Positions 23,083 to 62,032 of a DNA stretch of 64,000 nucleotides are shown in pieces. This DNA comes from Paramecium tetraurelia. Taxonomy: Eukaryota. Both the position numbers and the translations under genes were made by a program. The notes below the pieces were generated by a model. The model was not told the DNA's origin. It made no database searches and was given only the letters and a program-made list of their open reading frames with translations. The stretch is taken from NCBI GenBank assembly GCA_000165425.1, contig CT868032.1, forward strand, positions 62,001 to 126,000, given 5' to 3'. The number at the start of each line of letters is the position of its first letter. Position 1 is the stretch's first letter.

Positions 23083-23377
23083 TTAATTTATATATATTGG
23101 GTGAGAATATAAAATATTATTCTATAAAAATTGTGGTCACAGAAAAACAAGTGCTTGGATGACGAAATATGTAAATTCTAGATGTCTCTTGGAAATATTG
23201 GGGATTAATAGATATGGTAGAAGAGTTAATGTTAGTAGAGGCGTAGTAGAAGAATATGCAGAATAAGGAGAATCTTGAGTATATATAATTATTATGGATT
23301 ATGGAGGTAAAGAAAAGTGTAGAAAAATTAGAGTTCAAATCGATGATATGAAATTGGATTTATCAATATTAAAATTA

Positions 23378-26300
23378 ATGAAATCATACATCTTATTGGC
23401 TATTCTCATAGGCTTAGGTGCATCATAAATTGTAGTAACATCGCAAACCCTCTGTGGCTGTCCACAATTAACAAATCAAAATGATTGTGACACATTGCCA
23501 GGGTGTCAATGGTAAGCGAATAGCAACTAATGCACACAAAGTTGCTAAGCACTTACATAAACTGAGTGCCAGGACGCCGCTTAGTATTGCCAATGGAATC
23601 CAACTACTACAACATGTTCTACATTTTTAGGCTGCGCAAACTTAATAGCTACAAACAATCAATAATGTGTCTAATAGAATCCTAGATGCGTTGGATTTAA
23701 TTATACAACTAACTTATGCTTGAATTATAATGAGATCACTTCACCATGCGCCAATTACCCATAAACACAATGCAATTTCAATTTTGGTACAGATGGAGTT
23801 TGTTATTTCACTGGCCTTGTATGTTCACCATATAATAATTGTACATAAGCTTAATAACAACAAAAATGTTTATAACTTAATGCTTTTGGAAATTTTTGTG
23901 TATGGTCTACTCTCAGAGGCTGCTAGGCTATTACAAGTTGTGGTCAATTATCAACTCAAGCCTCTTGCACAAACTATTTTTCAAGTTTTTAATCAAAAAC
24001 TTTGAATGTCTGCTATTGGTAAACAACCACTAATCCACCTTCATGTGTTCCTATTACCAATCTTAATAATTTGGATTAAACCACTTGTTTGGTGAATACA
24101 AGTTTCTTCTTCAGATGGTATGGATTATCGAACAATCCAGGTAATGGGTTTTGTGGTCCTTGCAAACAATTTTCATTAAAGAAGGTTGTAAGTACATAAT
24201 GTTCTTGTTCTCAATATGTGTTACAAAATGATTGCAATTCATAGAGTACTTTATGCCAATGGAATACATTGACCAATACTTGTTCACCAAATACCTGTGC
24301 CCAAATTAAAACTCAAAATATTTGTCTTACTGTGTCCGGTTGTTATTGGAGTATCGGTGCCAATCAATGCCAAGCTTTGACTAGTTGCAATGATCTGACA
24401 TTCAAGGTTAGCGCAGTTGGATGTGCAGCACAAAGTTTGTACTGTGCTGGTTATTAAGGAGGTTAATGTGTACAAACATCAACAGTAGCTTCTACTTGCA
24501 ATTCATAAATTACAGCATCAAGCTGTTACTAATTTATCAATAGTTAAGGTCTATGTGTTTGGAATGTCGTTAATTAAACATGTTCCCAATTGTTAAATTG
24601 TAGTTAGATAACTGATTCTGCTCTTTGTGGAAACTAATAGAATTAATGTATGTGGGATGCAACAAGTTTAACATGTCAATAATTGACTTGTGCATCATTC
24701 ACCACATCATAGACTTGTACATATGTGTAAACTGAATTTGGATCAAATACATACTAATTATGTAGATGGAACAAATCCCAAGGAATTCTAGGAGTCTGTG
24801 AAAATGCATATTCTGCATTATAGTAAACTTCAACAACTTGTGTTAGCAATACAGGAAATAACTTCAGATGGAGTACCAACAATGCATCTGCAGGAATGTG
24901 TGTGTCATGTGGTACAAATTAATTGTAATTGTAAACACCATCTTCTTGTTAATGTTCTTAATTCCACTCTAAATCAAATTGCTAAAATTCAGGGTTCTGT
25001 ACATTCAATGCCCAAACTAATATTTGTTCACCATCACCCTGCACATAATATGAAAACTAGATTACTTGTGCTGGATTAAGTACTTGTTATTGGAGTGCAA
25101 ATGGCTGTTTAGCATTCACAAATTGTTCTTCATTACCAGCAGCTGCTAATCAATTAGAATGTGTTAGTATGAATGCTTCATGCAAAGGAATCAGCAATGG
25201 TGTCTGTCAATCATTCGCCTCAACAACTTGCGCTGCTCAATATGCAGCTACCAACACTTGCGTTAATAACAGTGGTACTGATGGAATTTGTTACTTGGTC
25301 AAAGCAGACAAAACTACCACATGTGTTGGATTCTCATAATGCACTCAAGCTGCAAACAATGAAACCTTATGTCTAAGAAATCAACTGTCTTGTTCATGGA
25401 ACAGTCTAACAGAAACATGCTCTTAAGTTACCTGTTCATCATTCAAATCAGAATTAAATTGCAAATTCTATCTACCCAATCCACTCTCATCTTAAATTGT
25501 TCCATGTTTCTGGAATACAACTAATGGTACATGTGGACCAGCTTCTGATATTTTAACAGCATTGACTTAAAATAATTGTGCAACCAGTACTCATAATACT
25601 TACACTTGGGTAACAACTTCAGCTTAAACTGGTAAAGGATATTGTGTTAGATGTTAATAATAAGTCACATTACCTAAATAATGCGCCTGCTCATTCTTAA
25701 CCTAATATGATTGTTCCCAAGCTCTTGAATGTTACTGGAACAATGGAGCATGCATACAAATGGAATGTACATCGATACTTTAACAATCTGTATGTGCATC
25801 CCAAAAAGGTTGTTAATGGAATAACAATTCATGCACTGTATTTAATGGTACATGTACCAACTTGTTCGGATAGAGTTAAGCTGCATGCATGGCACAAAAT
25901 ATATATTGTGTTGGTAGCAATGGAACTAATTGCACCACCACCTATGCTAAATGTGAGGCCAATACAACCGATACATCCTGTGTTGCAAGCATCGGAAGCA
26001 ATGGAGCATGTTACTGGAACACCATATCCAAGACCTGTGTGGCTGTCAATTCATGCAATCAATTACCAGAAGCTGAATGCAATTTACAATCTAAGTCATG
26101 TTATTGGAATGGTATTACTTGTCAAAGTTTAACATGTAGCACACTCTATTCCTAATATGGTTAATGCACTTTTGTTATGAAATTATCATCCAACAGCTAT
26201 GTTTCATTTTGTTAAATGGTAGGTGATCAATGTACATAAGTACCAGATGCCTTTAGTTTAACTTAAGAATAATGCTATGCCAATACTAATAAAACAGCAA

Positions 26301-28699
26301 GATGGATTCCATAATCTACAAATTATGGAGGAATTTGTGCATTATGCTCTGGAAATGTCATTCCAAATTACAATCCTCAAACATGTTAATGCTTTTAATA
26401 CATGACACAAAGTGATTGTAACAATGCTAGTGGGTAATCTTGTTATTGGTCAACAAATAACATATGTGCCCAATAAGTTTGTGCCAATATTGTAAGTCAA
26501 TCAGCATGTGCTTAAAACATAGCCTGTATTTGGAATGCTGGTACTTGTTAAACCTTCACTTCATGCAGTTAAGTCGCTGGAACAGGATTGACTGCTTAAC
26601 AATGTCTTAGTTATTCAATTCAATGCAAAGGCTACAATGGAGGAACTTGCACTTCAACTCCAAATTATACATGCAGTACATTATTAACACCAAGTGCTTG
26701 CAGTGGTAATTATGGATCCGACGGTGCCTGCTTATGGAATTCAACTGTTGCTCCTTCTGTATGTATTCCAATTACAAATTGCAGTTAAATTCCTTACCAA
26801 CAAATTTGTGGTTATTACACTGAAGGCTGTTAATTTGTAAATAATTAATGTCAATCCCTTACCTGCGGTTACTTCACAACTCCAGCAACATGCACATTTT
26901 ATGTATCATAACTTTACCCTGGATAAATTTAATAATGTCAATGGTCAGCAGCTACTGGAACTTGTGTTAATTTCTTCACATCTTCAGACTTAAATTCAGG
27001 CAATTGTGCTGCCAACACAGGATTCACTTATAGATGGGTTCCAACAAGTGCCAATAATGGAGATGGTTATTGTACTAAATGTATGATAAACTCCGTTAAT
27101 GTACCTGGATAATGTGCTTGCAACTAATTGATTTACTAGAATGATTGCTTAGCAAATTCTTAATGTTCTTGGTCCACCACTGCAACATCTCCAAGTTGTT
27201 ATAATAAACCTTGCAGTCAAATTATGTAATAAGCAATCTGCAGTACCAATCCAAGATGCTCATGGTCAGCTGCTTAAAATTTATGTTAACCATTTTCATC
27301 ATGTTCAGAACTTGCTGGTGTCAATGCTGGAGAATGTGCTAGTTATTCTGTTTTCTGTGCAGCCATATCAACAACATATTTACCTCTTCAAAATAAGTAT
27401 CTTTGCGCAGGCACTCAAGCTCAATGCACAGTTTCAAATCCATCAGGCACTGCTGGAGCAACAACTCCATCCAAATGTGAAAACACCTATGTTACTCAAG
27501 GTATCTGTTAATTTGACGCCGAAACCAAATAATGTAATAAGATCACCTAGTGTTCAGGAATTAACTCTCAATAGAAATGCCAATAATTCAACCGTTCTTG
27601 CTATTGGTAATTACCAACTGGAGCAGCAACAGCTGCCACTTGCGTACCTGCAAGTTGTACCTATTTCACCAATCAACAAACATGCACATATTATTTGACT
27701 TCCTTAACAACATCATCATCCTCAAAGGTTGTTCAATGTTCATGGTAACCAACTGGCTCATGCATAGAAGCTACAAATCTCTCAGCTGCCACATCAAAAA
27801 CCTGTTACTCCAACTCATTTATGATGTCAAGATGGACTTCCACCTAGGCTGAATCACCTAACGGATTCTGTGCATCATGCAGTTAATACAGTTTAACTTA
27901 AACTTACAAGTCTGTTTGCTCATGCTCTGAATTATCACAATATGAATGTCAAGTGGCTTCCCCTTAATGTGCATACAATTCAACTTCCACAAAGTGTGCT
28001 GCCCAAAACTGTACTTCAATTACATCTAAGTTTTCATGTGCTGCCAATCCTTCTTGCATCTACATTGGATCTTGCCAAACCTATACAAAAACACCTACTG
28101 GTACAAATGTTGGATGTGTTAACATTACTAGTGCCACATCTTCTTTCGATTGCTTAACTGCTTCAGCCAATTGTCCACAATTTACTGCCAGTGCCACCTA
28201 AGGAAATCCTGGTAGTTGCGGTGTTCGATAAGAATGCAGTAAACAAACTACTTAAGCACTATGTGAAGCCTACAATGCATAAGTCTTCACTGGTTATTGC
28301 ACTTGGAATGGCAGTGCTTGTTAAAATATTAATAATTGCAAACAGATTTCTGATGTTTCAGCATGCAATTTATAAACCAGCAGATGCCAATGGAGTGTTG
28401 TTTTGAATTCTTGCATCACACAATCATGCAATTCATATACTAGTCAAGCAGATTGCACATACGTGTACACTTCCTATTAACCTGGAGATATTGCTCTCTG
28501 TGCTTGGGATCCTGCCTATAATGAGTGTAGAAGTGCTCCCCTATCAAATTTAGATTCAACTTAATATAATTAGACTAACACCATCTAATGCTTTGTAAAT
28601 ACAGGTCATGTATATCACTTGGATGGAAATGAATGTACAAGGTGCTTCTAAAACATTTTAAGCATTCTTCTAATAACAATGCTCCTAATATTAATTTGA
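23378..28699 (+). CDS. Cys-rich GPI-anchored surface antigen-like protein, 1773 aa, seven tandem units
   Basis: Signal peptide MKSYILLAILIGLGAS; periodic CxW motifs; units start CxC at 23453, 24200, 24947, 25682, 26384, 27113 and 27917, all in one frame; hydrophobic C-terminal NILSILLITMLLILI-TGA. Confidence 0.9.
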
Positions 28700-39112: not shown

Positions 39113-42100
39113 TCAAAATCTAATGATTTTAGATCCTTTCTACTCAAACAATATTTCTAATGACTTACCATCTTATTCTATAACTGTATCTGATAAAATA
39201 CAATTACTTGCCGATATTAAACTATCTCTCCCAAATATTCTATAGCAGTGGATGTAGTCTCCTTAATTGCTCATTTGATCTAAGTGTATCTCATGTATAT
39301 CTTTTGGAAACATAAGTTTAAAGAGTCTGATTGATCCATCTTCCATAGCCACTGCCATGTCTTTACCATTTGGAGATAATGTTATTTTTGAAATAATTTC
39401 AATAAAGCCTTTAATAATTTAAACAGTGGCTGATTATTTAATGCTCCAAAATCTTATAGTGTGATCTTAGGAACCAGATACTATAATTGAATTATCTTAA
39501 CAGATAGATAAGCATATTATTTCCCCTTCATGTCCTTTCAATTCATTATTTAATTTCAAACCTAAGGGATCACTATTTACATTAAATAAATTAATGTCAC
39601 TACCAATTGCAGCTGCTAGAAGATCGCTATTATTTATAAAAACAACTGAAGTAAAGTGATTGTTATAATTTCCTTCGACTTCTTTTTTTTCATCCGTGAT
39701 ATAATTCCAAAGAAATAAAGTTGATCCTCCGAATGCAATAATAGTTTACTATTACATTATTGAGAAAGCATCAAATTTGTGAAATTATTGTAAAGCCCTG
39801 AAAGATGGAGAACTTGCAAGATTGAGCTATTCCAAATAGTATAACTTTTCACCTTCCTCTCTATGAAGACTATAACAACAAATATCCTTAGTAAATCTAA
39901 ACTTAGCTAATTCTTCTTCATTAAAGTAAATAACTCGGGACAGAATTATTTTATCTAACTCACTGATATTCCAAAGCTTGAATATACCAATTTCACAAAT
40001 TGATATTAATAATTATTCATCTTTGGAAACTAGTAAATTAAGAATTCTTCTATCATTATTGATAGTTGCAATTCTTTTTAGAGAGTCAAAATCTTGGCAA
40101 TCCCTAAATTCAATTTTGTCATCATTATTATAAACCATAATCTTTTATTTAGGAAAGAATACAGCAATCGCAGTAAAGCCTATCGGAAGTTCAATAGTTT
40201 CATAATTATTAGAAACTTTAGATGTGTATGTTTCTAATAAAGTAGAATATTTTAAGGTTTTAACGTTCCATAAGATTAAATATTTAAAGTATACATTTTC
40301 TATTGCCTTTCTATTTGAGTGCCTTCTGTATTTATCAACAAAAAGTCCACCTTATCCTACACTAACACATAATGAAAGATCTGAAGAAAAACTACAATTT
40401 TTAAATTCAATTTTAGGCACAATTAAAGTTTTAATGTAGTATTCAGATCTTTAATTTTTCTCTTAGTAATATATGAGACAAGCTTTCAGTTTTCCTATTG
40501 CGTCTGTGAAATCTAATTTCTAAATTGTATTATTTGTTTGAAAAAAGATTTGAGATTCCTATTTTATAAACATTGTTGAGTAATCAAAATTATTGCATTT
40601 TATTGTCTTGAGCAATAGTAATTGTACCATATCTTCTTCTATACACAATTTCCAGCAAAACATCTATTCCTTATTTCCACAAAATAAAATTGATTTTTCC
40701 GAGTTCAAACTGAGAAAATTAAAAGGGTCTCTTGAGCTATTATCATTATATTTTAAGTTAATTGCTTAATTATAAGAAAAAAAATAATTCTATAAATTTA
40801 ATAAGTATAACTCTGCTTCTTGATTACTATAAACTAAATAATTTTGATCAAAACTAAAATCAGCAATTATACATTGTTAAATTGATTTTAATTAATTATA
40901 CTAATTTTCAGACTATTGATAAATAGTACATTCAAAGTTTAAATTTTGATCTTAAGTAATTACAACAAGTTTCTCGATATCTTTGCTAAAAAACACTTTT
41001 TAAATTGAATGGTCAGAATTATTTGGTAATTATATTTTTTATTTTTGACTGTCTTAATTTTTCAAATAATTGATTAATATGGAAGAGTTTTTATCAAATG
41101 AAATAATACATAAAATTGATTTTAAATTTATATCCTTTTTACTTTCTTATTTCCTTTCTGTTTGTTCAGATTAAACATCCAGATTATCAATTTTATCAGA
41201 TTATTCAATTTTTTCAGATTCATCATTATTATTTTCTATTTATTCAGGTTCTTTTAGATAGAAGAATTTCATGAGGATTATTTCTGCTTAATGGCATTTA
41301 AAAGAATGCTTTAAAGAAAATGGATCTATTTCATAAATTGATATTTCATTTAATTGATTAGCTACTGCCAAAAGCAAATCATCATCAGAAAATTATAATA
41401 AATTGATTTTGCTATGATATTGAATAGTTTTTATTGTTTCGATTGAAATTAATTCCACTAATCTTAAAATTTTATTGTCTTGACTATCGTTTAGTCCAAT
41501 AGCTAAATATTTGACATAATTTGATATTGTAAAACATTGAATATCAAGATTTTCTAGAACTAATTCTAACTGCGAAGTGGAAATATTTTAATCTTTTATC
41601 AAATGATTTACATCCCACAAATAGATTTAATTCTTAAAATTTGTATAATAAAATTTATCATCATCTGTAAAATATTGTAAAAAGTCACGAGGATCAAAGT
41701 TTATTTTTAGGCTGCAAAGCAATTCATCACCATCTAAAAGCCTAAATATTATGATTTAATTATCAACCGAAGACAATATTTTAGAGTCATTTGAAAATAG
41801 AAGATAAATGATTTCTTCTGTGTTAAACTATTTTAATTGTATCAATTTTGGTTCAGATGTTTACAGTAACTTCCCTAGAGTTAATTAATTTTGAGAGTCT
41901 ACAGAGCATATATATTTGAAATCTTATGATATTTAGTAAAGGCGTATTTCAATTTCACCATATTCATATAAAAAAACAGACTCTTCAATTTAATGATCTC
42001 TTTTCCAGATTTCTACAAAAGACAAATAATAATACTTTTGATCTATCTCTTTAAATGAGTTCAAGGATAAAGTAATGAATAGGTTATCGTTTGAGAATAA

Positions 42101-45100
42101 TTAGAATTTTAACAGAGCGCTTTTTATTATAAAATTATAGGAGTAGCATCCACAAGGGATGAATTAGAATTTAGACTTTTATAACGCTTAATTATATTAA
42201 ATATTCCATTATTGTATTTCTCCTCCTTGTGTTATGAGAAGACATTCTTAATTACGAGTAACTGAAAAGGAATGTATGTTATAATCAAACGTCTTTGAAA
42301 TTAATAAATTCTTATGCTCCATATCCCATAATTTAAGAGTTTTATCTAAGCTTCCAGAATATAACACCAAACTATCTGCTGAGAACACTATATTTGTAAT
42401 TTCCTTCTCATGTCCATCTTAATATATCTTGTTTAAGTTGGCATTTAAATTCCATAATCTTATCAATTTGTCATCACTGCCAGATGCCAATGTTGAATTA
42501 TCTTAAGATATTTAAACTACATTCCCTTTCTCTGAGTGAACTTGGAATTTAGCTACTACTTTTCTTGCCTTAAAATCCCAAAAATAAATGGTTTTATTAT
42601 TTCCACAACCAGCTAAGAATTTTGAATCTTAAGAGAATGAAATATTTAAGAAATTTACATTCTCTTCCAATTTATTGAATTCTTGGTGTGTTTTATTCTC
42701 ATAAATATAGATTTTTGGACCTGCAGAAAAAACAACATTTTTTCTGTCTTTAGATATAGCTATACAATCACAATCTTCCTTTATTTCATGATAATTATTT
42801 TCTATTTACTATCCAATCAAATCTCTAACTTTAAATGTTTTATACTCTATATAAGCTACTTTTGATTCATTTTGTAAAAGAACTAAATCTTTTAAACTGT
42901 AAGCATCACAAGCAACTATAGATTTAATAAACTTTCTAATAATCATATCAGTGAATTAGATTTAATTTTTATCAAAAATGTTAGCAAGATAGTTAAATGA
43001 TGTTTTAGGAAGAGCTGAGTTTATTTTCCCATATATTATTCCAATAGATTAAGGTTTATGAATGTCTTCTAAATTAAAAAGATGTATCTTTTAGCCTACT
43101 AATATTAAAATTTTGCCATAATTCGAAAATTATAAAGAACTATAATAATCTTTCTCGGTTTAAACTTAACCTATGATTTATTTTGATTTAATGTTGAATA
43201 TTGTAATTATCTAGTTATTCTGAGACACTATATTGCAGTTATCTGGGCTAAATTCAACAATTCCTAGGTGAGAGAATTCTTCAATAAGAAGATTTGATTC
43301 AAAATACGATAATTTCGACAACTATTGATTTCCGTATATTATATATTATGAGTTATTCGATATCGCAATTATACTTAAATCTTTATTATTAATAAATCTT
43401 TATTTGCCAGTCAGGGTTACAGCATAAACTTTTGAATTTGAAAGACTATAACTATCCAAAACCTTTGCCAAATATTTACCATCTTTTGAAAAAACAATAT
43501 GTTCATTGGATGATTTACTGTAATAGTCAATTAAAGTGAACCTATTATTTCCATCATTCCTCCAAATTTTTACTGATTCTAATTCTTTTGTATACAGATA
43601 TCCTTCATTAAAAAACATTTTCGCATAGAATGCAGATTTCAGATTTGGAATTAATTCTAGCAAATTGTTTGATTTGATATTCAAAGTATATATCCCAGAA
43701 GGAATAGTGACAATCAATCTTTCTTTATCTTAACAATATTAAACTGACTCAATGGTACCAGGAAGTGGAAAACTGAATTCAATTTTACAATTGCTTTATA
43801 TTTTCCACATTACTACTTTTTCTTTTATTCCACCAACGATATGTTGATCATCAGCTGAAAATTAAGTTTGAACATGCAAATTATCTGAACTCTCTAAAAC
43901 TCCTATATATTTAAAGTCATCAAATTAAATCACTCTACTCCTCTCAGAGCAAGTATACAGAATACCTTATATTTGATGTAAGCAAACTATTCTTTGCACA
44001 TCTTCGTTGTTTTTACTTTCTTAAGCAGCTAATAATTTGAGTTATGGGAAATTTGAAATGTCCCATAATTTCATAACGCTTTTTGCACTAATTAAATATT
44101 TTCCATCATATGTAAAACATAAGGATCTGATGTATTCACCTGTCTCAAATTAATATATTAATTAATTTGTCTCGAAATCCCAAAATTTAATATTCAATTC
44201 ATCACTAGAAGTAGCAAATATATTTTATTTTGGAGAAGATGCAATAGTTTTTATTGATGAATCAGCTCCTTTAAAAGTAACAATACTCTCGTCAGAAATG
44301 AATTTCCATATTTTTATATCTTCGTTATTATAGAATGCAACCCATAAACAATCATAAGAAAAGCAGATTTCTGGTGATATACTAAAATAATTGTACCGAC
44401 TCTAATCATTAATAGATTCATTTAAAGAATACAATTAATTTTAGCCAAAATCCCAAATTATTATTAACTTATCACTTATTGATGCCAAGGCTAAATATTT
44501 ATCATCATAAGAAAATACTATTGATGATATTTTACAGTCCAATTTAATTTCATACTTTTGATAAAATTTTAATTCTTCTTAAACCCAAATTTAAGTTTTT
44601 GAATCCTTACTAATGCTTGCAAAGAGGGAGGATTTATGAGAAAATGCACCTAATTGAAATTAATTATAATTTTTCTCGAATTCGATATTCCCATTGCCTT
44701 TCATAAATTCAACAATAAAATCACTGCTACCAGATTTCACAATTAATTAATCATTTTAAGAAATAGAAAATACTCTACCATATAGGGAAATATCATCAAT
44801 CGTTTTCAATTAAATTTTATTTAAACTTATTATTCCTAATTATCGATTATCTCCTTATATTTAATAAACTACTTTATCAAAGTCTTATGATATGGTTATA
44901 TTTTAAGAGTAGGAATTTTCAAAAGTTGCAATTAATTAGCATGTTTCCACTGACCAAAGTCTTAAACTTTTTGAATAATCTCCACTTAGTAATTTTTTTC
45001 CATTGCTAATGAATAAAAGCTCCTCTATTGAATAATCATTCTCAAAAGTCATGATTGGAGAATATGTAAACAATTCCCAAAGTATTATTTATTATTTATT

Positions 45101-48100
45101 ACCAGTAGCTATTAAATTTTCATCTGGTGAGAAATCAATGCAAGAACAGCCTGTAATTTAATATTATTATTCTTATTTATATATGTTGTTAATGTTTTAA
45201 ATTAATAATACATCTCCAATTTTATATATTGATTATTAATCATCTGAGGTGAATAATATATTTTCAATTCTATATTTAGTAGAAGTTAGAAGTAAATAAG
45301 GTTGGCTAATGTTTTCAATATTCCATACAGCTAAACCTTTAAAATCTGAACAATCGCAAACACAATAGAGTAATTCAAATGTTGAGTTCATTACTACATA
45401 TGTAATTTGAAAAGAGAATTCTATTTCAGTTGAGACTTTTTGTTCTTTTACATCCCAAAGTGTAACCTTTTTGTCTTCGCTTACTGAAGCCAACATTTCA
45501 CCATTCTAGAAAAATGAAATGAATTTTATCTCGCTTTCAGAGCTTTTTAAGGTAAATCCATCTTTTTAATTGAAATTAGATTTAATTAAATTTACATCCC
45601 AAAATTCAATAAAACCTAATTCATCAACAACAATTAATTCCTTATCATTTAACGACAATTGCATTTATATGATTTTTTCTTATCTCATAATTTGCTAATC
45701 TGATTTCTTGATACTTTTAAGATCAGTAATTGACCAAATCTCAATTATATTTTTATCACTGCAGATAAATACAAGTTAGTCGTCGCCCGAGAATACCAAG
45801 AATTTAGTTATATTAGATATTTCGCTTATTTCTCCCAATAACTAAAAATTTAACACATCCCAAAACTTTACAATTTTTTCAGAGTCTGCACTTGCTATTA
45901 ATTTACCATCATTTGAATATTAAATTATAACAACGCCACTTTTATGTCCTTATAACAATGGTTTTTCAGAGCATATCACACTCTTCCATCTAGCCTTCTC
46001 CAAATGAGCTTTGTCGAATAAACAAGAGTCAATAATTACCTCTTCGAAAATTGAATTCTAAGATCTACTATTAAGAGAGGATAATCCTTTAAGGGTGGTC
46101 TTTTTAATTTTTATCCCTGAAAAGTCTTACTCTCCTAGATATACTTATAAATGACTTAGAATACAAAAACTATTTGAAGAGACCACCTCAAATGTCAGAT
46201 TTGTAGATAATTTAACCATGGAAATTAATTTACGGATATTTTCATACTTAAGTTTTAGTTTTTGTTTCAGAATACTTAATGATCCAGAGTAATTTTCTAG
46301 TGAGATATTAAAGTCTTTATTGTTAAAGACAGAGGTTTCTAAATAGGTTTAGCTATTATAGGTGAGTTAATTATCTTTCAATTCAAGTTTATCAATTAAA
46401 TTATTGATGTGTTGTGCAACATAAAATTCTTATAAAGATTTATGATTAAAAGAATAGTTTTTCCCCTTCATATTAATCAATGCAGAGCTTCTAACAAGTT
46501 TTCTATATTCATCTTCCAAATCATCAAAATATTGCATTTTCCATTTGTCTTTATCTTTTTAATCAAAATAATGATTTTTCATTTGTAATTTTCCTTTTTA
46601 CTCATAATTGACTTATGTTATTTAATTAATAGTCATTTCTATTGCTAATGATTCTGAAAATTATACTAGATCTATTGTAAAACTATCTACATTTTCAACT
46701 TTCCCTAATTGTCTAAGTTTCTAGATTTATTATTCATGATAAAACTCTATAAAATTTTAATAGAATTCATAAATTGTAAATATCTTCATTTTAAATGCTG
46801 AAATCACAACCTTTAAATCATCATTACTTATATCTGCTAATTAATTGTTTAACAAAGAAATGTCAGTTATTGAATAATTTTCAAAAAATCTCTAGCTTTC
46901 CAATTTTTCAAGGATGATTTTTAGACATTTTAAATCTTATTGATACTCTTAATCTTGTTCATTCTGCTTTTCCTAAATTTTTGTTTCCTCTTTGATAGCC
47001 TGCTCATTTTTTTATTCTTAATATGAGAATTATAACAATAGTCTTTTTGATAAATTTTCTTTATTTTTCAATAGAAGGAAGTTATTTTGAAACATTTCCT
47101 TAACATCATTAGATCCTTTGTATTTTTTTGAAAGACTTGGCAGAGTTTAAACTACTATTTCTAGCATAAATGGAGTTTATAAGAAATGATAAATGTTTAG
47201 ATTCTCGATAGTTTTATTAAATAACTTTGCGCTCCATAATTCTTTAAGTTCTTTTTTTAAAATAATTAGCTAATTTTATTATACATATTGAAATGTAGGC
47301 TATTTTCTTATTACTTCCAAAATATTCTCAATTTATTCATCTAATAGTAACTTATCAGAATTTTCACAATTTTCCATATCTTAATATCCCAATTTATTTA
47401 AAATCTTATTCCAAATCTCTAAAAATTCTTGAACATTTTATTGTTATTATTTAACTTACTTGACAAAATCATATTATGATTTAATTCTTCTTTTAATACT
47501 TAATTTAACATAATGGTTGAGATAACATTCACTTTATTACTTATCAAAATTCATGATTTCAACTTCTTTGAATGTCATAAGACTTTCTCCATAAAACCAT
47601 GTCTAATATCCTAAACTTGTCAATATTTCTTTTCGGGTTGTTATTATAAATTTTACTTTTCTTCTTTAATTTATTTAATGAAGATCAAGTTCTTATATTA
47701 GTCTATTTGTTAATATTAAATTTGATTAAATACAATCTTATTTCATTTCGTCATAACTATCAAGTATCATTACGATTTGAATTTTATTGTTCTAAATTGC
47801 TTCTTTGAAATCTTTCAATTGTAACTTATCAAACCCATAATTTTCAGATTCAAGTGCTTGATCTACTAAATTAAACTTTGGATTTTTTAATTAAGGCAAT
47901 GAAATATAGATAGGAACCCAATCGTTTTAGTCTAAGTTTTATTTCCAAAGATACTCTTCTATCTTTCTAGCTGCTCTGCTTTTTCCTGAGCCAGCAAGAC
48001 CTTTAATCAACATTACATCTTTATTCTCTTCTTCATAAATAAATTAATTAACTTCACCTTCCCTTTCTTCTTTATTGTTTTATTTGACATCTTCAACAAG

Positions 48101-51100
48101 CAACTCAGAAAACTATGAACCTGAAATAGTATTTTAAACTTAACCTGTAACAGGATTGACTTCCTAAGTTTTTAATGGAATATACACAGAATCAAGTTCC
48201 AAGATATAGGCTTATTATAATACCTTTTCTTTTCTAATTTATAATAGCTCTTCATATTTTTTTCCTCGTAATTTTCTTACATCATTTCCAATCTCATTTA
48301 TTGATTCTTAAAGATCATCTATTTTCTTTTTTATTTATTTTACATTTTTTTATAGCTCTTTTAAAAAGATTAAAGTAATATCCAATTATTAAGACATTTC
48401 AGAAATATTATCAAGAAATTCCTCAAATTCCTCATATTGACTTGTTAACTGTTTCTACAATGTAATTCTATTGGATTAATTACTTTCAAAGCGAATTGCT
48501 TATTCAATTTCATCCATTTCCTTCAATCTTTAATTCATCTCATCTTTAATACTAGCAGATAAGGTTTTTAGATCATGAGAAAACAATATCTTTTACATTT
48601 CTATCATCTCTTTATTTTTTAGTAACGCTCTCACACTTTCATCTTTTTCTATCATCCATATTCTTTTTATATATTCTTGGCAAAGCAATAATAATTCTTT
48701 TTCAGGAATTTAAGATTAAATTTTCATTAAATGGAAAAGGAAACATTCTCGAACTATATAATCTTTACTCAAATCATAGAATTTTCTTTCCGAAACTATT
48801 TCTTAATTTAAATAATCTATTATTTCTTAGTATTCCTTATCTATCTTAACATTGATTTCTAAAGTTCCAAAATTATAACAAAAAATTGAGGCAAAATCTT
48901 TTAATGAAAAATTTATTTTATTTTTGAATTAATTATCGTCTGTCTATTATTTATTTATCATATTCTCAGTAAATTCATTTAACAATTTATCCAATTCTAA
49001 TTAATTTATTAATTTCTTTAATTATTGATTTAACATTTTCTAAAAAATGCTTTTGAAAATTATCTTCAGTTATATATATGAAACCCATGCAATTTTAATG
49101 AACATATTTAGATAATACTTCCATATTAATTATTATGTTGTTTAAATTTATTATTTATTTATTCCATTCTGTTAATTTTCTAGAAAGATGAATTAAATAC
49201 CCATTCTATAAAATACACTCTTTCTAATCTTGATCGATAGGATTCTCCTATGGATTATAATTCAATATTTAATTTTCTTTATATTACTGATATTTTTCTA
49301 ATATCTCCTTTTTGAATTAATCAGGATCTTATTAAGATGACAATTTAAATTTATAAAATGAATTATAAAGATAAGTTTATAGAATTAAAGCTTAACTTAC
49401 TTAGTCGGATTATTAATATGCAAAATTTATTATAATTTTATTTCTTAATATTACTATTTAATCTAGTATTCTTTAAATATCATTTTTATCCTAAAATTCC
49501 TTTTAAATTTATGTCTCAATATCTTTTTACTATTCTGAAATCAGTTCATTTATCGATATTTATTATTCTTAATCATTGTCTTATTATATAATGACTCTAC
49601 TCTATTTAATTTCTAAGGTGGATTTGAGATTTAACTCAAAATTTGTAAAAATATAAACTTTCTGCAGATATTAACCTTATGTAATTTTCATAATTTTGAT
49701 ATATTTCTAAATATTTTAGTTAAATTGTTATATTTCGTCAATTGTTTGAAAACTCTATTAAATAAGTCTCTCCTTAAACTCTTTATGGTATTCATTATTA
49801 TTAAATTAGAATTTATCCCTTTCGATAATATCTAAGAAAAAATCGTGCATGTTTTAATCTAATTATTCATTATATTATTTTAGAGATGACTAATTAAGTC
49901 TCCAAAAATTCTTAAATGATTATTGTTAAATATTCAGTTCTTATAAATATTTTTCTATTAAAATCTAAACATCTCTAAAAAATATACTCAACTCATTCTC
50001 TTGACTCTACATTTATTTTTCTTAAGATTTGATTTTTTCACCTTTAGATAACTTAGGTAGAGATTCGCTATTGTTGGCGATGAGGTCAAAAATTTAATTG
50101 TATTTTTTAGGTAAATCAATTTTTAACCAGTCATCATAAATTTTTTCAAGCTATTTCTATTGATCGTCAATCTAACTTAATAATTTATTTTTCTCTTTTT
50201 TATTTTAATTTTGTTTTTCTTATTCGTTTTAGTATTCATTCATTTTGGCTGATTCTTGGCAGATTTCCATCCTCTTTTTCTCAATAATCATAGTGAAATT
50301 TACTTCATTAAGCAAGTAGGAAAGTTTTAAAAGGGTAAAATCTAATTATTACACTTCTCCATCTTTATCTAATATAAGATCATATTTATTAACATTATTT
50401 TTAGTTTCTTTTTCTTAAGGAGTGGTTTGGAATGATTTTCCTAAACTTTCAGAATACTATATAGTGATCTTTTCTTTAATCTCTTTTAACAATAAACTTA
50501 AACGATTTAGCCTCTTCATCTATTCATCAGCACCCAATAATTCAAGTTGTTGTGATATAGTGGTTTTCTCTTGTGGTTTTTTTTGTTTTTAAAAGGTAAA
50601 ATTTACATAAAATTAAAAGAAATTTTATTTATTATAAAATTATTGATTTAATATAGCATTTTAAAAACTTTTGATCTTTTTCACCCCTAAATTAATTAAA
50701 GTTTGTTCGGATTCATAGTCTATGGACTTAAAGGAAAAATCATTATTTACTTTTCCGAGCAATTTATCATATGATAATACTTTTATAATATTTTGTTTAA
50801 TTAAATCATTCCATAATTATTTTGGTTGCAAGCTATTAAGAAACACACTTTTTGAAATAATTTACCTATATGCAATCAAATCTGAAATAGCATTTATCCA
50901 ACAAAAGTGTACTATCCAATTATCTGAATTCTATACATATTATTCATATCCTCGCTAGAGACTTTCTATTTATTTATTAAGTTCATTCTTTTCTTAAATA
51001 TTTTTTATGATATTCCATTTTAACAGAAAGAAGAAGTAATAGATCTAGTATGTTTGAATAGGAAAGCTATACTAATTAAATTTTTCAATTAACAAATATT

Positions 51101-51956
51101 TTGCAAAATCAAATAAGGCATTTGTAAAATCTTCACTTATTGAGAGTGATAATATAGAAGAAAAAGCAGAAGATGCAATAGATATTAATTTATCTTATTA
51201 TTCCTTTGAATTTGTCTTACTATTTATTAAGACTATTTTTATCAAAGTGATTTAAAATTCCAATCCCCTTATCCAAAAATTTTTATGAATTTCAAGATCA
51301 TTTTTGATAATATCAATCTCTGTTAATAAATCGCCATGCATTTCAACTGTAAGATAACGGCTATCATCATTTAGTTAATAGGTATAAATTATCAATAATA
51401 AATCATTACAAACTTCTAAAACATAATAGCAAAGACATCCTGAACCCCTTAAATAAACAGGTATTACTGAAATAAGCTGTCTAAATGAATTTAATGCGAC
51501 ATCATAAAGCATCAATATCAAGTTGTCATTTTTGCAAATTTCACAAATCCAATATCTATTATCAGAAAACCATTATATTGACATCATTAATTCATTTCTT
51601 GAAAAACCATCCGAAATTTAATCACATTTATCTATAAGTATTTGGCAATTTTATTTCATTGTTGATTAGTAGTTAATAGGAATTGTGATTGACATCTGAC
51701 TTTTTTTTTTGGATCCTCCACATCCTCCTCCTCTGAGGGATGGGGATGGATGTTATTTATTTAAATATCTAACTTTATCAAATTTCATTTCAAGAATCCG
51801 TTCATGAATTTCATTAGTACCCAAACATTTCATTAAAAGCTATGAATTGGAAGAAGACTAGCTGCTTAAATTATTTCCCACTTTAGCTCCAGTTATTTGC
51901 TACAACAAATAAAAAATCATATTAAATTTTTTTTAATATTCAGGGGCTGAAATCAT
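39113..51956 (-). CDS. Giant (~4270 aa) NLR-like STAND protein: helical N-terminus, NACHT NTPase, pentapeptide-like segment, very long WD40 array
   Basis: Walker A VMLIKGLAGSGKS (47978-48001); WVPIYISLP; Walker B MILDSYDE; IITTRKE; LQTPFML; SFNHKSIQEF; DFSGIKIKKTTLKG..FDKAHLEKARW; GH..LASGSDDKLIRLW-type WD40s from ~45960 to ~39300; one frame break near 48975-49050; start codon uncertain. Confidence 0.85.
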
Positions 51957-52469
51957 TTTATTTCCTTAAAATCTAGCATTATTAATTAATTTGATTAGTA
52001 ACGACAAAATTATTCATATAAATTGAAAAAATTAATTTAATTCAAAATTTGAAGGATGAAGGATGAAGAATCAAACCATTAGGATAATAATATGCAAAGT
52101 ATTGGTTATGCCAAATTAAACCAAAATAATTTTTTTCTTAACCAATTAAATTTATCTTAGCAAAAAATTCAACACTACTAAATATATGTTTCAATTATAT
52201 ATGGAGCAACTGAATGCATTTAGAATTTCCATATTTGAAATAATAATTATGATATAAGAAATATATTAATAAAATAATAGAGGGGATTCTTATATGGTCA
52301 TGTCATTGAACTTACTTAAAAATAATCAATGATTAGAAATATAATCATATATTAATATTGAACAATTATAAACCTAATAGTTTAATTAATAGATATTTAA
52401 TTGCTCTAAGCAATATTAATATAAATGGTTTGCATAATTTAAATAATATTAAAATATATGAATATAAAA

Positions 52470-53150
52470 ATATTAAACTCCAGATCTTTCGGTATTTTGA
52501 AGAGGATATATATTTATCTAACTGAGAATTCTACTTATTAACCTCTCACCTCTTATAAGCAGATTATGTGTGGACAGTGTGTTTGTAGTATAGATAAGGT
52601 ATTCTTTTTGATGTTCCAGTTAACTACATTTAATTGTGTTTATATATTTGTAACATTCATGGAGGGGGTGTTTAAACTTTGATTTCTCATATTTGCTTCA
52701 TTATTTTTGTCTCCGATGAAATTGGATTTCCTTTGGTTAAAATGATAAATAATTATGAACTTTAAAATTATTAACTTATTAGATAAAAGATCGTTTTATT
52801 ATATCTTACTTCCTCTTTAATGCTGTTAAGCGATAAAATCGATACCATCCCTAAATTCTATTTCTTAAATTTTTTAAATTTATTACATAATGATGTAAAT
52901 CGATTTACAAAAGTGTTTTACAATATTTTATCTCTATCCTGTTTCAATTCACGTTTAATATTAGCCTTTTCATTATTAATAATTTTTTCATCCTTTTTGT
53001 ATTATTGGTTTATTTATTCAAATGTGGATTGAAATATTTTAGAAATTTAAACCATCCAATGAGTTGAATCATTTAGGTATTTGATTACTTATATTTTTTT
53101 ATGAAAGATTTATGTTCATTAATGATGAAATGATGGTGTTTATCTGAATT
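52470..53150 (-). mobile_element. Degenerate non-LTR retrotransposon remnant (N-terminus of an APE-type endonuclease)
   Basis: QLNVVNWNIKKNTLSILQTHCPHIICLQEVRG (52541-52636) matches EEP/APE motifs I (xWNx) and II (DIICLQE), with the linker shortened; the frame degrades on both sides; outer boundaries approximate. Confidence 0.55.
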
Positions 53151-53901: not shown

Positions 53902-54051
53902 NNNNNNNNNNNNNNNNNNNNNNNNNNNNNNNNNNNNNNNNNNNNNNNNNNNNNNNNNNNNNNNNNNNNNNNNNNNNNNNNNNNNNNNNNNNNNNNNNNN
54001 NNNNNNNNNNNNNNNNNNNNNNNNNNNNNNNNNNNNNNNNNNNNNNNNNNN
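53902..54051. other. Assembly gap (150 N)
   Basis: Run of N characters. Confidence 1.
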
Positions 54052-58706: not shown

Positions 58707-58760
58707 TTTATATGTATTTAGTGACATTAGCATATTATATAAATAATTAACTATACTTAG

Positions 58761-60350
58761 ATGTTGGTTTTTCTAACTCTCTCTCTCGTGCACTCCTTTT
58801 AGTAATACGAAATACTGATAGGATACCCTCAAATTATAGAGTATTATTCTGCTTCAGGGATCATCATAGAACAGAATCTCACATCCTCATCAGAAATCGA
58901 GTTAACTACTTCTCCTTGTTAAGTTGTACCATAGCAACTAATCAATCAGAATATGTTAGACTAGTCATTACCTATCATACCTTAATATTTGCCGGAGTAG
59001 TTTTCCCAATATTTTGATGATGGCCACTTTTTAGGGTTGATACCCCACATCATTTCATTTGTCAATATAGAAAACGATGTGGTTATTTTAACAAATTAAG
59101 CAGAATTAATCTACATTCGATTCCTAAATGAATCCTTCATTGTTTCTGACAAAATTAATCTAAACATTAATGTGACTATATTGCAATATCCTGTTTTTAT
59201 GGAGACGATTAGGAATCAATTGATTATTATCATGTATTCAGACACTGTTGGAATTACATTAGACATCAAATCTGAAAAGATATTTTCAAAATCATTTCGC
59301 ATTTACGAATCATTTAATACGAATAAAATCTTGAGTGTAGCCGTTGTTAATAATATGTTATTTATTGCTATGGGCGTAGGAGGGTTAAAAATATTCTAAT
59401 TAAATGGCCAAATTTTAGGTTCAATTGATTTCGAGTATTAAATTAATAATGCAACTGATCTCAAAGTTTTTCATGAATTTGATGTATATTATATTTACTT
59501 ACTTGATTATGATTTGGGAGTCTCATCCTTCATATACAACCCCAAATCTACCTTAATATACAAGAATGAGAGACTAGATACTATTCCCTATTCTGGAGAT
59601 ATTATTGATATTTATAATAACATTATGATGATTGCCAGTTACTAAGATTAATAAACAATAATTTAGGAAATCTATTTGAACTACACCGATTTTAGTTGGA
59701 AATAAGTTAATAAACATATTGTTAACTCAATTATAGTAGATATTGATATTTTAGATCATGTTGCAATCACTCTAGGTAAAAATGGAAACACAGTTATCTT
59801 CCATTCCATTCCTTCATAATACCAAATCAAATAGCAACACTTTATTATGCCTTCATTGTAAAAATTGAGTTTTATTAAATCAAAAAGTTCATTGTATCTT
59901 CTGGGTGTCAGTCTTCATAATTTCTATTATTCTAAATTAGAATTAAAGTAGAGTTACTTATAATGCTATTTTGAATAGGAATAATAGATTAAATTATCCT
60001 ATTCACACATTTCAGAATGCAAGAAATATAAATCCGGAATTTGTGCTTACACTTAAGAATATTTGATATAATCGATTAAACCAATCATAACGACAGAATA
60101 AAATTTTTTAATTTATTTAATTTTATTCCTTGTAGCTCTAGCCTTTATTACCATAATAGTAATTCTCATAAGAGAGTTCAATAAATATCATGAATTTGTT
60201 CATAATTTAGATCCAATTTGTCCAAAATCAAACGAAATAACTATGTAAACTTTTGAAAGTCCAACTAAAATAATTAAATTCAATTAGACAGGAGCACATA
60301 CTTCATAGTTCTCTATAATCAGTAATATGACCAGATTGTAGTAAGTTTGA
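58761..60350 (+). CDS. Type I membrane protein with beta-rich ectodomain (paralogue A)
   Basis: Signal peptide MLVFLTLSLVHS; NNMLFIAMGVGGLKIF; TM LIYLILFLVALAFITIIVILI followed by REFNKY. Confidence 0.75.
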
Positions 60351-60383
60351 TGAGCGTATTATTTATATTATTATAAATAAATA

Positions 60384-62032
60384 ATGCTGATTTTTTTATT
60401 ACTAATATTTGTGCAAAGTCAGGATTATAATATCTCGGTTGATTCTGAAAAAGTAATTGACAAGTTTGATCAATATGGTGAAATCTTTTATTAGGAAATT
60501 GATTACTAAAATAATTCATTCAAACCATGTCATTTCACTAAACAAAAGTTAGTTCAAAGTACAGGATTAAATATAGATATTGTTGAATCTTTTAATGAAA
60601 CATTCTTCCAGCAGAATTATGAGGAAGGCCATTTAAATGCTAAAATTGATGAAGTCATAGCAGCTGTCACTATTTAAAATGGATCAATTGTTTTGACCAA
60701 ATAGGGAAAATTGTAACATTTACTGATTACTAATACAATCACTTTAGGTAGTTCAATAATGATTAATATTAAGACTGCAAAAAAGGTATATCTAAAATAC
60801 CTTAGCAGAAATAGAGTTTTACTGATAATTGCAGATTAAGAAACTTAAGCATTTCAGCTTTCAAACAAAACAGATGTTTTTCAAGATTCATAAAAACTAA
60901 GGATATATGACTAATTCAACGTTGAGTAAATCTCAAGTATAACTACTGTAAATGATATGGTTTTCATTGCAATGGGTAGATAGGGCATTTAAATGTATTA
61001 ATTTAAAGAAAAGAATTTACAATCAATCTCTTGGGTATTGAATGGTGAATCAAATAACTAGTTTCATGATGTAGTCGACATTAAAGTGTTCTCACAAAAT
61101 TAAGATCAAATCTATACAATTTATATTTTAGATAAGAAATTGGGTGTCTAATAATTTGTTTATAATTCAATAACAACCTTGATCTCCATGAATACTAAAT
61201 TAGGAACAATCCCATTGATTGGGGACATCTTTGATATTAGATAGTCTATTTTAATTATCATAGAGCATCAGCCCTCCTTTTCTTTTGTACACGAAATAAC
61301 ATTAGATTTAACAAACAATACATACAAATAACTTAATAAATATAGAACTTTCAAAGATGTTCAGGATGTTGATATTTTGAATCATTATGTTGTTATATTA
61401 GGTAAGAATGGCCATTAAGTATTAAGGCATTCCCTACCCCAAAGTTTCAATAATTAGTCATCCAATTCAATAATTATACCAAATCTATAATAATTAGATT
61501 ATATTGATTACAAAACAAGGACCATAATATTTGGATTCACTAAACATAAATTCTTTTATTCCTCCATTAGAGAAGTAAACATTTAATTATATACTAGTCT
61601 CCAAGTGTAATTTATTGTTTTTCAAACAACACTGAAGTTCATTAGACAAAGTTTGTTTATAAATAAAAATCAACAAAATGTCCTGATGAACTCAATGTTA
61701 CAAAGGAAGAAATATGTTAGATTCAAAAAGATTATACAGTTAATTTCATTCCCCCAAAAAATGGAGCAGGATATTCTTAATTGATATTAATTTATGGTGT
61801 TGCATTTGTGTTGGGGCTTGGGTTTATGATGTTAAGTTTTCTGTTGTGTAGAGAGTTCAGAAAATACGAACATTTCGTTAAATATAATGAGATGGTAGAC
61901 AACGATTCAATTGGATTGGAGGGATAAAATTCAAATAATTCTTAAGATTCATCCAATTAGAGAAAGTTTGAGAAAATTGAACAAAAAGGATCTTCAATGA
62001 CTCCAGTTGTTTATGAGGAGAAAGATGATTGA
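60384..62032 (+). CDS. Type I membrane protein with beta-rich ectodomain (paralogue B)
   Basis: Signal peptide MLIFLLLIFVQS; NDMVFIAMGRQGIQMY; shared DVDIL.H..LGKNG..HS.P block; TM then REFRKY; one intron near 61578. Confidence 0.75.

Follow-up and report, generated by a model that had tools for sequence, protein, structure and literature searches.

An LRGG ubiquitin-tail motif joined to a candidate dual-acylation signal near the N-terminus of a giant NACHT-WD40 protein family in Paramecium

The ubiquitin-fusion precursors, which include polyubiquitin and the ubiquitin-ribosomal protein fusions, are cut by deubiquitinases after LRGG. Deubiquitinases normally need the ubiquitin fold, while the viral papain-like proteases and the adenain-type enzymes recognise a linear LRGG motif. 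Src-family kinases and G-alpha subunits carry the SH4 signal Met-Gly-Cys-x-x-Ser-Lys, the Gly of which is exposed co-translationally by the removal of Met, and a myristoylation signal of SH4 type works only on a free N-terminal Gly. S-palmitoylation alone near the N-terminus can also anchor proteins. Proteolysis is another route to an N-terminal Gly. For example, in caspase substrates such as huntingtin an internal Gly is made N-terminal by endoproteolysis and is then myristoylated.

Type III effectors of the AvrPphB family are reported to self-cleave and expose embedded Gly/Cys acylation sites, which are lipidated by host enzymes and lead to membrane localisation (PMC2708883). The principle of ‘cleave, then lipidate’ is already established, by the caspase substrates and by the AvrPphB family (PMC2708883). 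In the NLRP1 and CARD8 tripwires, a disordered and fast-evolving N-terminal stretch is reported to be the protease substrate and the new N-terminal Gly to be functional (PMC7857732). A search of the literature outside the subscription journals found no description of an LRGG leader together with an acylation signal, no relevant link between LRGG and myristoylation (judged mostly by titles), and nothing on Paramecium NACHT-WD40 proteins or on Paramecium N-myristoylation of this kind.

The window analysed here, i.e. the whole 64,000-nucleotide stretch of Paramecium tetraurelia DNA (contig CT868032.1, positions 62,001 to 126,000), has a GC content of 0.19-0.37 and its genes are readable only under the ciliate code. 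The gene under study occupies two long frames of the minus strand, which are otherwise open over 13 kb and give a product of ~4,300 aa:

48975-52013, minus strand: open frame of 1012 aa, the upstream part of the NACHT-WD40 gene
39113-49261, minus strand: open frame of 3382 aa, the downstream part of the NACHT-WD40 gene, with the frame end at 39113
47504..48019, minus strand: NACHT NTPase domain (PF05729), residues 415-586 of the 3382-aa frame
39113..45964, minus strand: WD40 beta-propeller region (PF00400), reaching the stop codon
49011..49057, minus strand: discontinuity between the 1012-aa and 3382-aa frames, at which tblastn of the orthologue P0001 switches frame

The initial annotation had described a giant NACHT-WD40 protein, and the Pfam matches bear this out, with PF05729 at E 2.9e-12 (47.2 bits; cut-off, 26.7) and PF00400 at E 3.7e-63 among many propeller families that cover ~residues 1100 to 3340 of the 3382-aa frame. 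The gene thus has the two features of an NLR-like STAND NTPase, namely NACHT above the curated threshold and C-terminal repeats. No Pfam family was found at E<=0.01 in the 1012-aa frame. The order of the domains is an N-terminal alpha-solenoid, a long coiled-coil-like spacer, NACHT and many WD40 repeats, which is that of a giant NLR-like protein.

In Paramecium pentaurelia, P. primaurelia and P. sonneborni, the orthologue is encoded as one protein of 4,263-4,352 aa. The tblastn alignment of P0001 spans both frames, and its sequence tracks one of them (frame A) up to ...IIKE and then the other (frame B; LINQLELDKLLNEF), so that the two long frames are offset by one base relative to this orthologue. 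The sole in-frame GT..AG option at the frame change of the alignment is an atypical one of 19 nt (GTT...AAG, 49034-49016). One base too many in an A-run, a genuine frameshift or this atypical 19-nt intron could underlie the offset, and the window copy may be mis-assembled or damaged downstream of the discontinuity near ~49015. The public model of the gene, P0014 (Paramecium tetraurelia), shares 100% identity over 488 aa from residue 13 of the window protein on. P0014 is only 676 aa long (49870-51920, minus strand), departs from the long frame near 49941-49968 shortly before its end, and it looks truncated when compared with the orthologues.

The neighbours are ordinary macronuclear genes. At 9679-12287 (minus strand) lies a USP-type deubiquitinase gene, with matches to UCH (PF00443, E 2.6e-21) and to a USP40-like ubiquitin-like domain (E 4.7e-06); it is ~40 kb from the LRGG gene and no link between the two was found. 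A 1806-aa Cys-rich repeat protein at 23279-28699 (plus strand) shows a weak match to Paramecium surface antigen (PF01508, E 9.1e-06). The frame directly upstream of the gene, 52298-52948 (minus strand), contains NVVNWNIKKNTLSILQTHCPHIICLQEV. By eye, this stretch has some likeness to the first part of the endonuclease/exonuclease/phosphatase domain of non-LTR retroelements, and no Pfam family was found in the frame at E<=0.001. A run of 150 N at 53902-54051 marks an assembly gap. The adjacent frames 58725-60350 and 60354-61784 (plus strand), of 541 and 476 aa, match no Pfam family; by eye they resemble tandem paralogues, both with FIAMG..G...Q, GKNG and a hydrophobic N-terminus.

Two features lie near the N-terminus of the giant protein:

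51726..51737, minus strand: LRGG (CTC AGA GGA GGA), identical to the ubiquitin C-terminal tail and proposed as P4-P1 of a cleavage site
51702..51725, minus strand: GCGGSKKK, a candidate SH4-like dual-acylation signal with Gly1, Cys2, Ser5, Lys6 and a basic patch

The LRGG-GCGGSKKKS that had been noted near the N-terminus is encoded as described: the LRGG codons were confirmed at 51737-51726 of the minus strand, and they are followed by GGA TGT GGA GGA TCC AAA AAA AAA AGT, read under the ciliate code. The frame is open from 52013, with the first in-frame ATG at 51956 and the second at 51920. In the six-frame translation of the whole 64 kb, RGG occurs twice and LRGG once; hence, the site is not a matter of chance.

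Relatives of the protein were collected with a word-index search for long relatives (13 proteins) and with phmmer against 1.84 billion representatives (35 proteins at E<=0.001), and they total 47 proteins, including two cluster mates. All the homologues with a named source are from the Paramecium aurelia species complex, the phmmer representatives carrying no names. A word-index search with residues 52-92, i.e. the motif region, returned a single candidate, the window protein itself. The initial annotation had raised the possibility that the motif may not be conserved in paralogues. This does not hold, as exact LRGGG[C/S] is present in 31/34 of the homologues that reach the site (31/47 of all relatives). 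Of the 16 relatives without it, 13 start downstream of the site, and the three deviants that reach it are all short, aberrant models, namely P0029 (IRGCGCC), P0039 (FAGGGC) and P0035 (apparently a frameshifted copy of the string). The residues L, R, G and G are all present in 31/31 motif-bearing homologues. These 31 sequences share descent and two are near-duplicates, which leaves 29 distinct 10-mers, and the counts given here are of protein sequences.

The conservation is local. The family shares 21-75% identity with the window protein and the flanks of the motif are scrambled, with the upstream positions P5-P10 unconstrained. In an alignment of 487 aa and 33 rows, the only columns conserved at >=90% are R63, which is the Arg of LRGG, and one Tyr. 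Across 45 related proteins (72,476 aa), LRGG occurs 29 times, each time at the N-terminal site and nowhere else. The LRGG observation is therefore confirmed, and is stronger than was known when it was first made.

The residues that follow LRGG in the 31 motif-bearing homologues, numbered from the third Gly, are as follows:

Position 1 (the third Gly): G in 31/31
Position 2: C in 28/31 and S in 3/31
Positions 3 and 4: variable
Position 5: S in 19, T in 5, A in 2 and G in 2, i.e. small in 28/31
Position 6: K in 20/31

The PROSITE-style N-myristoylation pattern G-{EDRKHPFYW}-x-x-[STAGCN]-{P} fits 28/31 of these sequences, and a Cys is found within positions 2-4 in 31/31. As a background, 1,944 other Gly positions in the same proteins match this pattern at a rate of 18.4%, and of 1.4% when a nearby Cys is required as well. 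The myristoylation/palmitoylation signal proposed in the initial annotation is thus upheld at the level of sequence, in that the substrate pattern is kept while the residues drift. In the three variants with Ser at position 2, position 3 or 4 is occupied by a Cys (3/3), which is so in 4/28 of the sequences with Cys at position 2. Two of these variants are close relatives and the change represents at most two independent events, which reads as compensation at the protein level.

The consensus G-C-x-x-S-K is that of an SH4-type dual-acylation signal. Like the SH4 region of Src-family kinases and G-alpha subunits, it consists of G1-C2-x-x-S5-K6 and a basic or polar stretch; unlike in those proteins, the Gly in every Paramecium member is preceded by at least Met plus LRGG. 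The closest Met on the upstream side is 1-62 residues before the Leu and in no member adjacent to the Gly, and hence no member can expose the Gly by Met removal.

We consider it reasonably probable that an endoprotease cuts between LRGG and G and that the exposed Gly-Cys is then acylated. The protein would be made with a disposable N-terminal leader, which an endoprotease reading the linear ubiquitin-tail motif would remove. The new N-terminal Gly would be myristoylated by N-myristoyltransferase and the adjacent Cys would be palmitoylated, and the lipids would tether the solenoid domain to the membrane via a short basic linker. We infer the cleavage, both lipidations and the membrane targeting from the sequence. 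The register LRGG/GC is favoured because it provides every invariant residue, as well as Ser5 and Lys6, with a known role: a ubiquitin-type site for P4-P1, a myristoyl Gly, a palmitoyl Cys and the preferences of N-myristoyltransferase. Invariant residues are left unexplained by other registers, such as cleavage behind the Arg, cleavage behind the third Gly (with Cys/Ser as the nucleophile) and LRG/GGC, and LRG/GGC fits the myristoylation pattern in only 21/31 sequences. However, a plain Met-Gly-Cys start would suffice for simple acylation, and the purpose of the leader is left unexplained by this reading.

The proposed order of events is similar to that in the caspase substrates, where an internal Gly becomes N-terminal by endoproteolysis and is then myristoylated. 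In contrast to these substrates, which are cut after Asp and in apoptosis, the Paramecium proteins have a ubiquitin-tail motif hard-wired into a whole gene family. Similarly, the proposed N-terminal proteolysis that exposes an acylation site has its counterpart in the AvrPphB family (PMC2708883). Those effectors are reported to be cut by their own papain-like domain and at a different site (PMC2708883). The site in Paramecium is LRGG, the protein is the organism's own NACHT-WD40 protein, and no peptidase family was found in the Pfam matches of either frame (for the long frame, among the best 25 of 30 matches), unlike the effectors with their protease domain.

The leader does not look like ubiquitin by eye, as had already been remarked in the initial annotation, and the analysis agrees. 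It has the C-terminal LRGG tail and neither a profile match nor a beta-grasp. No Pfam family was found at E<=10 for the 77-aa leader, for the 96-aa leader extended upstream, or for P0037. In the AlphaFold2 model (33 aligned sequences), residues 1-77 have pLDDT of 36-65 and consist of coil and a few short helices, with no strands and no beta-grasp. The predicted leaders in 9/31 members have only 7-11 aa before the Leu, which is too short for a beta-grasp. The Paramecium site resembles the ubiquitin-fusion precursors in that P4-P1 is the identical LRGG, lies directly before a functional protein and ends an N-terminal piece that is putatively removed; it differs from them in the lack of a ubiquitin fold in the leader, in the shortness of some leaders and in a released protein that would begin with an acylation signal. 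Hence, a classical deubiquitinase that depends on the ubiquitin fold is not the obvious enzyme. Since leaders can be so short, an enzyme that reads the linear LRGG motif, by analogy with the viral and adenain-type proteases, is more likely than one that reads the ubiquitin fold.

Residues 49-77, which include the motif, are predicted with pLDDT below 50, so that the site would be accessible. The same disorder, so near the N-terminus, also suits a reading without any cleavage, to which we give a small chance. Here, LRGGGC would have a function inside the intact protein. It could be a flexible Gly hinge that bears a palmitoylated Cys, or a site where a partner or the WD40 or NACHT part of the same protein docks, and its likeness to the ubiquitin tail and to a myristoylation signal would be coincidental. 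The leader without a ubiquitin fold and the lack of an identified protease are in favour of this, and palmitoylation near the N-terminus could by itself provide an anchor. On the other hand, it leaves unexplained the invariant L, R and three Gly together with Ser5 and Lys6 at the spacing of N-myristoyltransferase, an enzyme that cannot act on an internal Gly.

Three further interpretations of the segment were rejected by eye. A bacterial lipobox or signal peptide does not fit a segment that lacks a hydrophobic core and has Gly at position -3. A mitochondrial presequence does not fit an acidic leader on a giant protein of cytosolic type. The spacing in GGGCGGSK is wrong for a Walker A or GxGxxG motif.

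The extent of the leader depends on the start codon, for which the following positions are relevant:

51954..51956, minus strand: first in-frame ATG, which yields a 77-aa leader and is probably upstream of the real start
51918..51920, minus strand: likely start codon, M13 (MIFYLL...), at which P0014 and the orthologues P0002 and P0003 begin
51738..51917, minus strand: leader, a candidate propeptide of 60 aa after the start Met, fast-evolving and with no confident predicted fold

The leader had been given as 77 aa. This length is correct from the ATG at 51956, but the likelier start is the second Met at 51920, which gives a leader of 65 aa counting LRGG; the caution that the true start may be a later Met was thus well placed. 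At the position aligned to this Met, P0002 starts with MIFRLL and P0003 with MIFCFL, and the public model P0014 also begins there, the starts of gene models being predictions. The GC content of 51921-51956 is 0.22, near the intergenic value of 0.205. In one contig of a DNA run (X1), position 51913 has T instead of A. This would replace Phe by Tyr in the third codon after the likely start and probably reflects a difference between strains.

It had also been asked whether the leader is translated at all. The GC content of the leader is 0.29 against 0.205 in the sequence upstream. Its in-frame codon-usage score (0.066) is that of coding sequence (0.037+-0.064 in held-out windows of the same gene; intergenic, -0.168+-0.115) and is matched by only 2.6% of intergenic windows, while its other two frames score ~-0.3. 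The leaders of the orthologues align in frame with 29-45% identity (66-80% in the domain), and those of the group of the window protein share a common MIF.. start and an ILELKF[DE]K stretch. In other subfamilies, 9/31 members have a Met 11 residues before the Leu. Of three oligo-dT RNA-seq runs, two had no read on 51100-52400 and one had 4; these 4 reads (2 pairs) all lie at ~51736-51891 without a splice joint, and the first mates are on the plus strand, as is expected for minus-strand RNA in the usual stranded libraries. The leader is probably translated, with RNA support that is thin (4 reads in 1/3 runs).

This bears on a further reading, in which the leader is untranslated upstream sequence and the conserved G-rich string serves as a signal in the RNA or DNA. 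With TGA as the sole stop codon, long open frames are common under the ciliate code, and the few reads would agree with such an artefact. It is nevertheless highly improbable, as the conservation of Ser5 and Lys6 after the string shows that the frame is translated there, most members have no Met between the string and the domain, the coding-like score is confined to the leader frame, and the leaders of the orthologues align in frame with common starts, i.e. MIF.. in the group of the window protein and Met at -11 elsewhere.

Other ways of starting the protein at or near the motif were also considered. A Met-Gly start created by splicing is ruled out, since the gene strand contains no ATGG from the upstream in-frame stop to the motif. 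The only GT..AG candidates that end at the motif, of 41 and 43 nt, are C-rich sequences beginning with GTT and are hence not plausible introns. The ATG within GGATGT (51723) lies in another frame that stops after ~35 codons.

Downstream of the motif lies a domain with a confidently predicted fold:

50631..51689, minus strand: N-terminal all-alpha solenoid domain (AlphaFold2), residues ~78-430 counted from M13
51429..51455, minus strand: the ‘echo’ YLRGSGCLC, at a helix-turn-helix junction within the solenoid

The pLDDT of the solenoid domain is mostly above 90 (AlphaFold2). Foldseek found no match to it at E<=0.001, the best being generic ARM/HEAT-like folds at E>=0.047. VIA-align gave best Z values of 10.7 and 9.9 (residues 76-336), again to generic ARM/HEAT solenoids and under the level at which the tool advises caution for helical repeats. 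In the ESM Atlas, feature scores were <=0.77 and TM <0.5, and a ZER1-like ARM entry fell under the bar and was not counted. The alpha-solenoid domain is specific to this Paramecium family. YLRGSGCLC had been regarded as a weaker echo of the motif, a suggestion that finds no support. It lies where helices 153-159 and 161-184 meet, both with pLDDT above 90 (AlphaFold2). In the 33 rows of the alignment Y156 is conserved (Tyr in 30/33), but G159 is Gly in 5/33 and C162, the first Cys, is Cys in 6/33. It is a structural element and no second site.

The solenoid is also of relevance to the reading in which the protein would process itself at Gly/Cys(Ser) by an N-to-S/O acyl shift, or be cut after Arg by a metacaspase-type enzyme. 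The acyl shift with a Cys/Ser nucleophile is known from hedgehog, inteins, Ntn-hydrolases and FIIND domains. The restriction of position 2 to Cys or Ser, both nucleophile residues, is in keeping with the former, as is the invariant Arg with the latter. Both are very improbable, as the downstream alpha-solenoid resembles no known autoprocessing fold, the Cys that reappears at position 3 or 4 of the Ser variants suits palmitoylation and not catalysis, and these registers leave L, two Gly, or Ser5 and Lys6 without a role.

A variant of the cleavage reading, to which we likewise give a small chance, builds on a putative immune role of the NACHT-WD40 family. In healthy cells the leader would be kept, and LRGG would be a ubiquitin-tail decoy cut only by foreign LRGG-specific proteases. 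Candidates would be the papain-like proteases of viruses, or deubiquitinase effectors from intracellular bacteria of the kind that lives in Paramecium. The cut would unmask the myristoyl/palmitoyl anchor and relocate the receptor to membranes or activate it. Such a tripwire would account for a leader in place of a plain Met-Gly start, for the fast evolution of that leader relative to the domain, and for the occurrence of the motif in a NACHT-WD40 family that has expanded. The sequence evidence behind it is that of the preferred reading and is the same for triggered and constitutive cutting, and the immune role is suggested by the domain architecture. To our knowledge, no pathogen protease is known that would act on it in Paramecium. 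A precedent is the sensing of proteases through the N-terminus that is reported for NLRP1 (PMC7857732). The Paramecium protein would be like NLRP1/CARD8 in being a NACHT-family or related sensor with a disordered, fast-evolving N-terminus that is cut to give a new N-terminal Gly. It would differ in that the new N-terminus of NLRP1 is a degron leading to degradation, unlike the lipid anchor proposed for the Paramecium protein.

If the cut and the lipidation proposed in the preferred reading are true, a ubiquitin-tail motif without the ubiquitin fold would time the lipid anchoring of a protein of the cell itself. A ‘cleave, then acylate’ step would be hard-wired and conserved across an NLR-like family outside animals, plants and fungi, and an LRGG-specific protease activity that needs no ubiquitin body would be implied for ciliates. 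The finding also bears on whether NLRs with a protease-sensing N-terminus go back further and are more widely distributed than the examples of NLRP1 and CARD8. For the large, uncharacterised NACHT-WD40 expansion of Paramecium, the motif offers a simple and testable way into its cell biology, i.e. into the location of these proteins and their switching.
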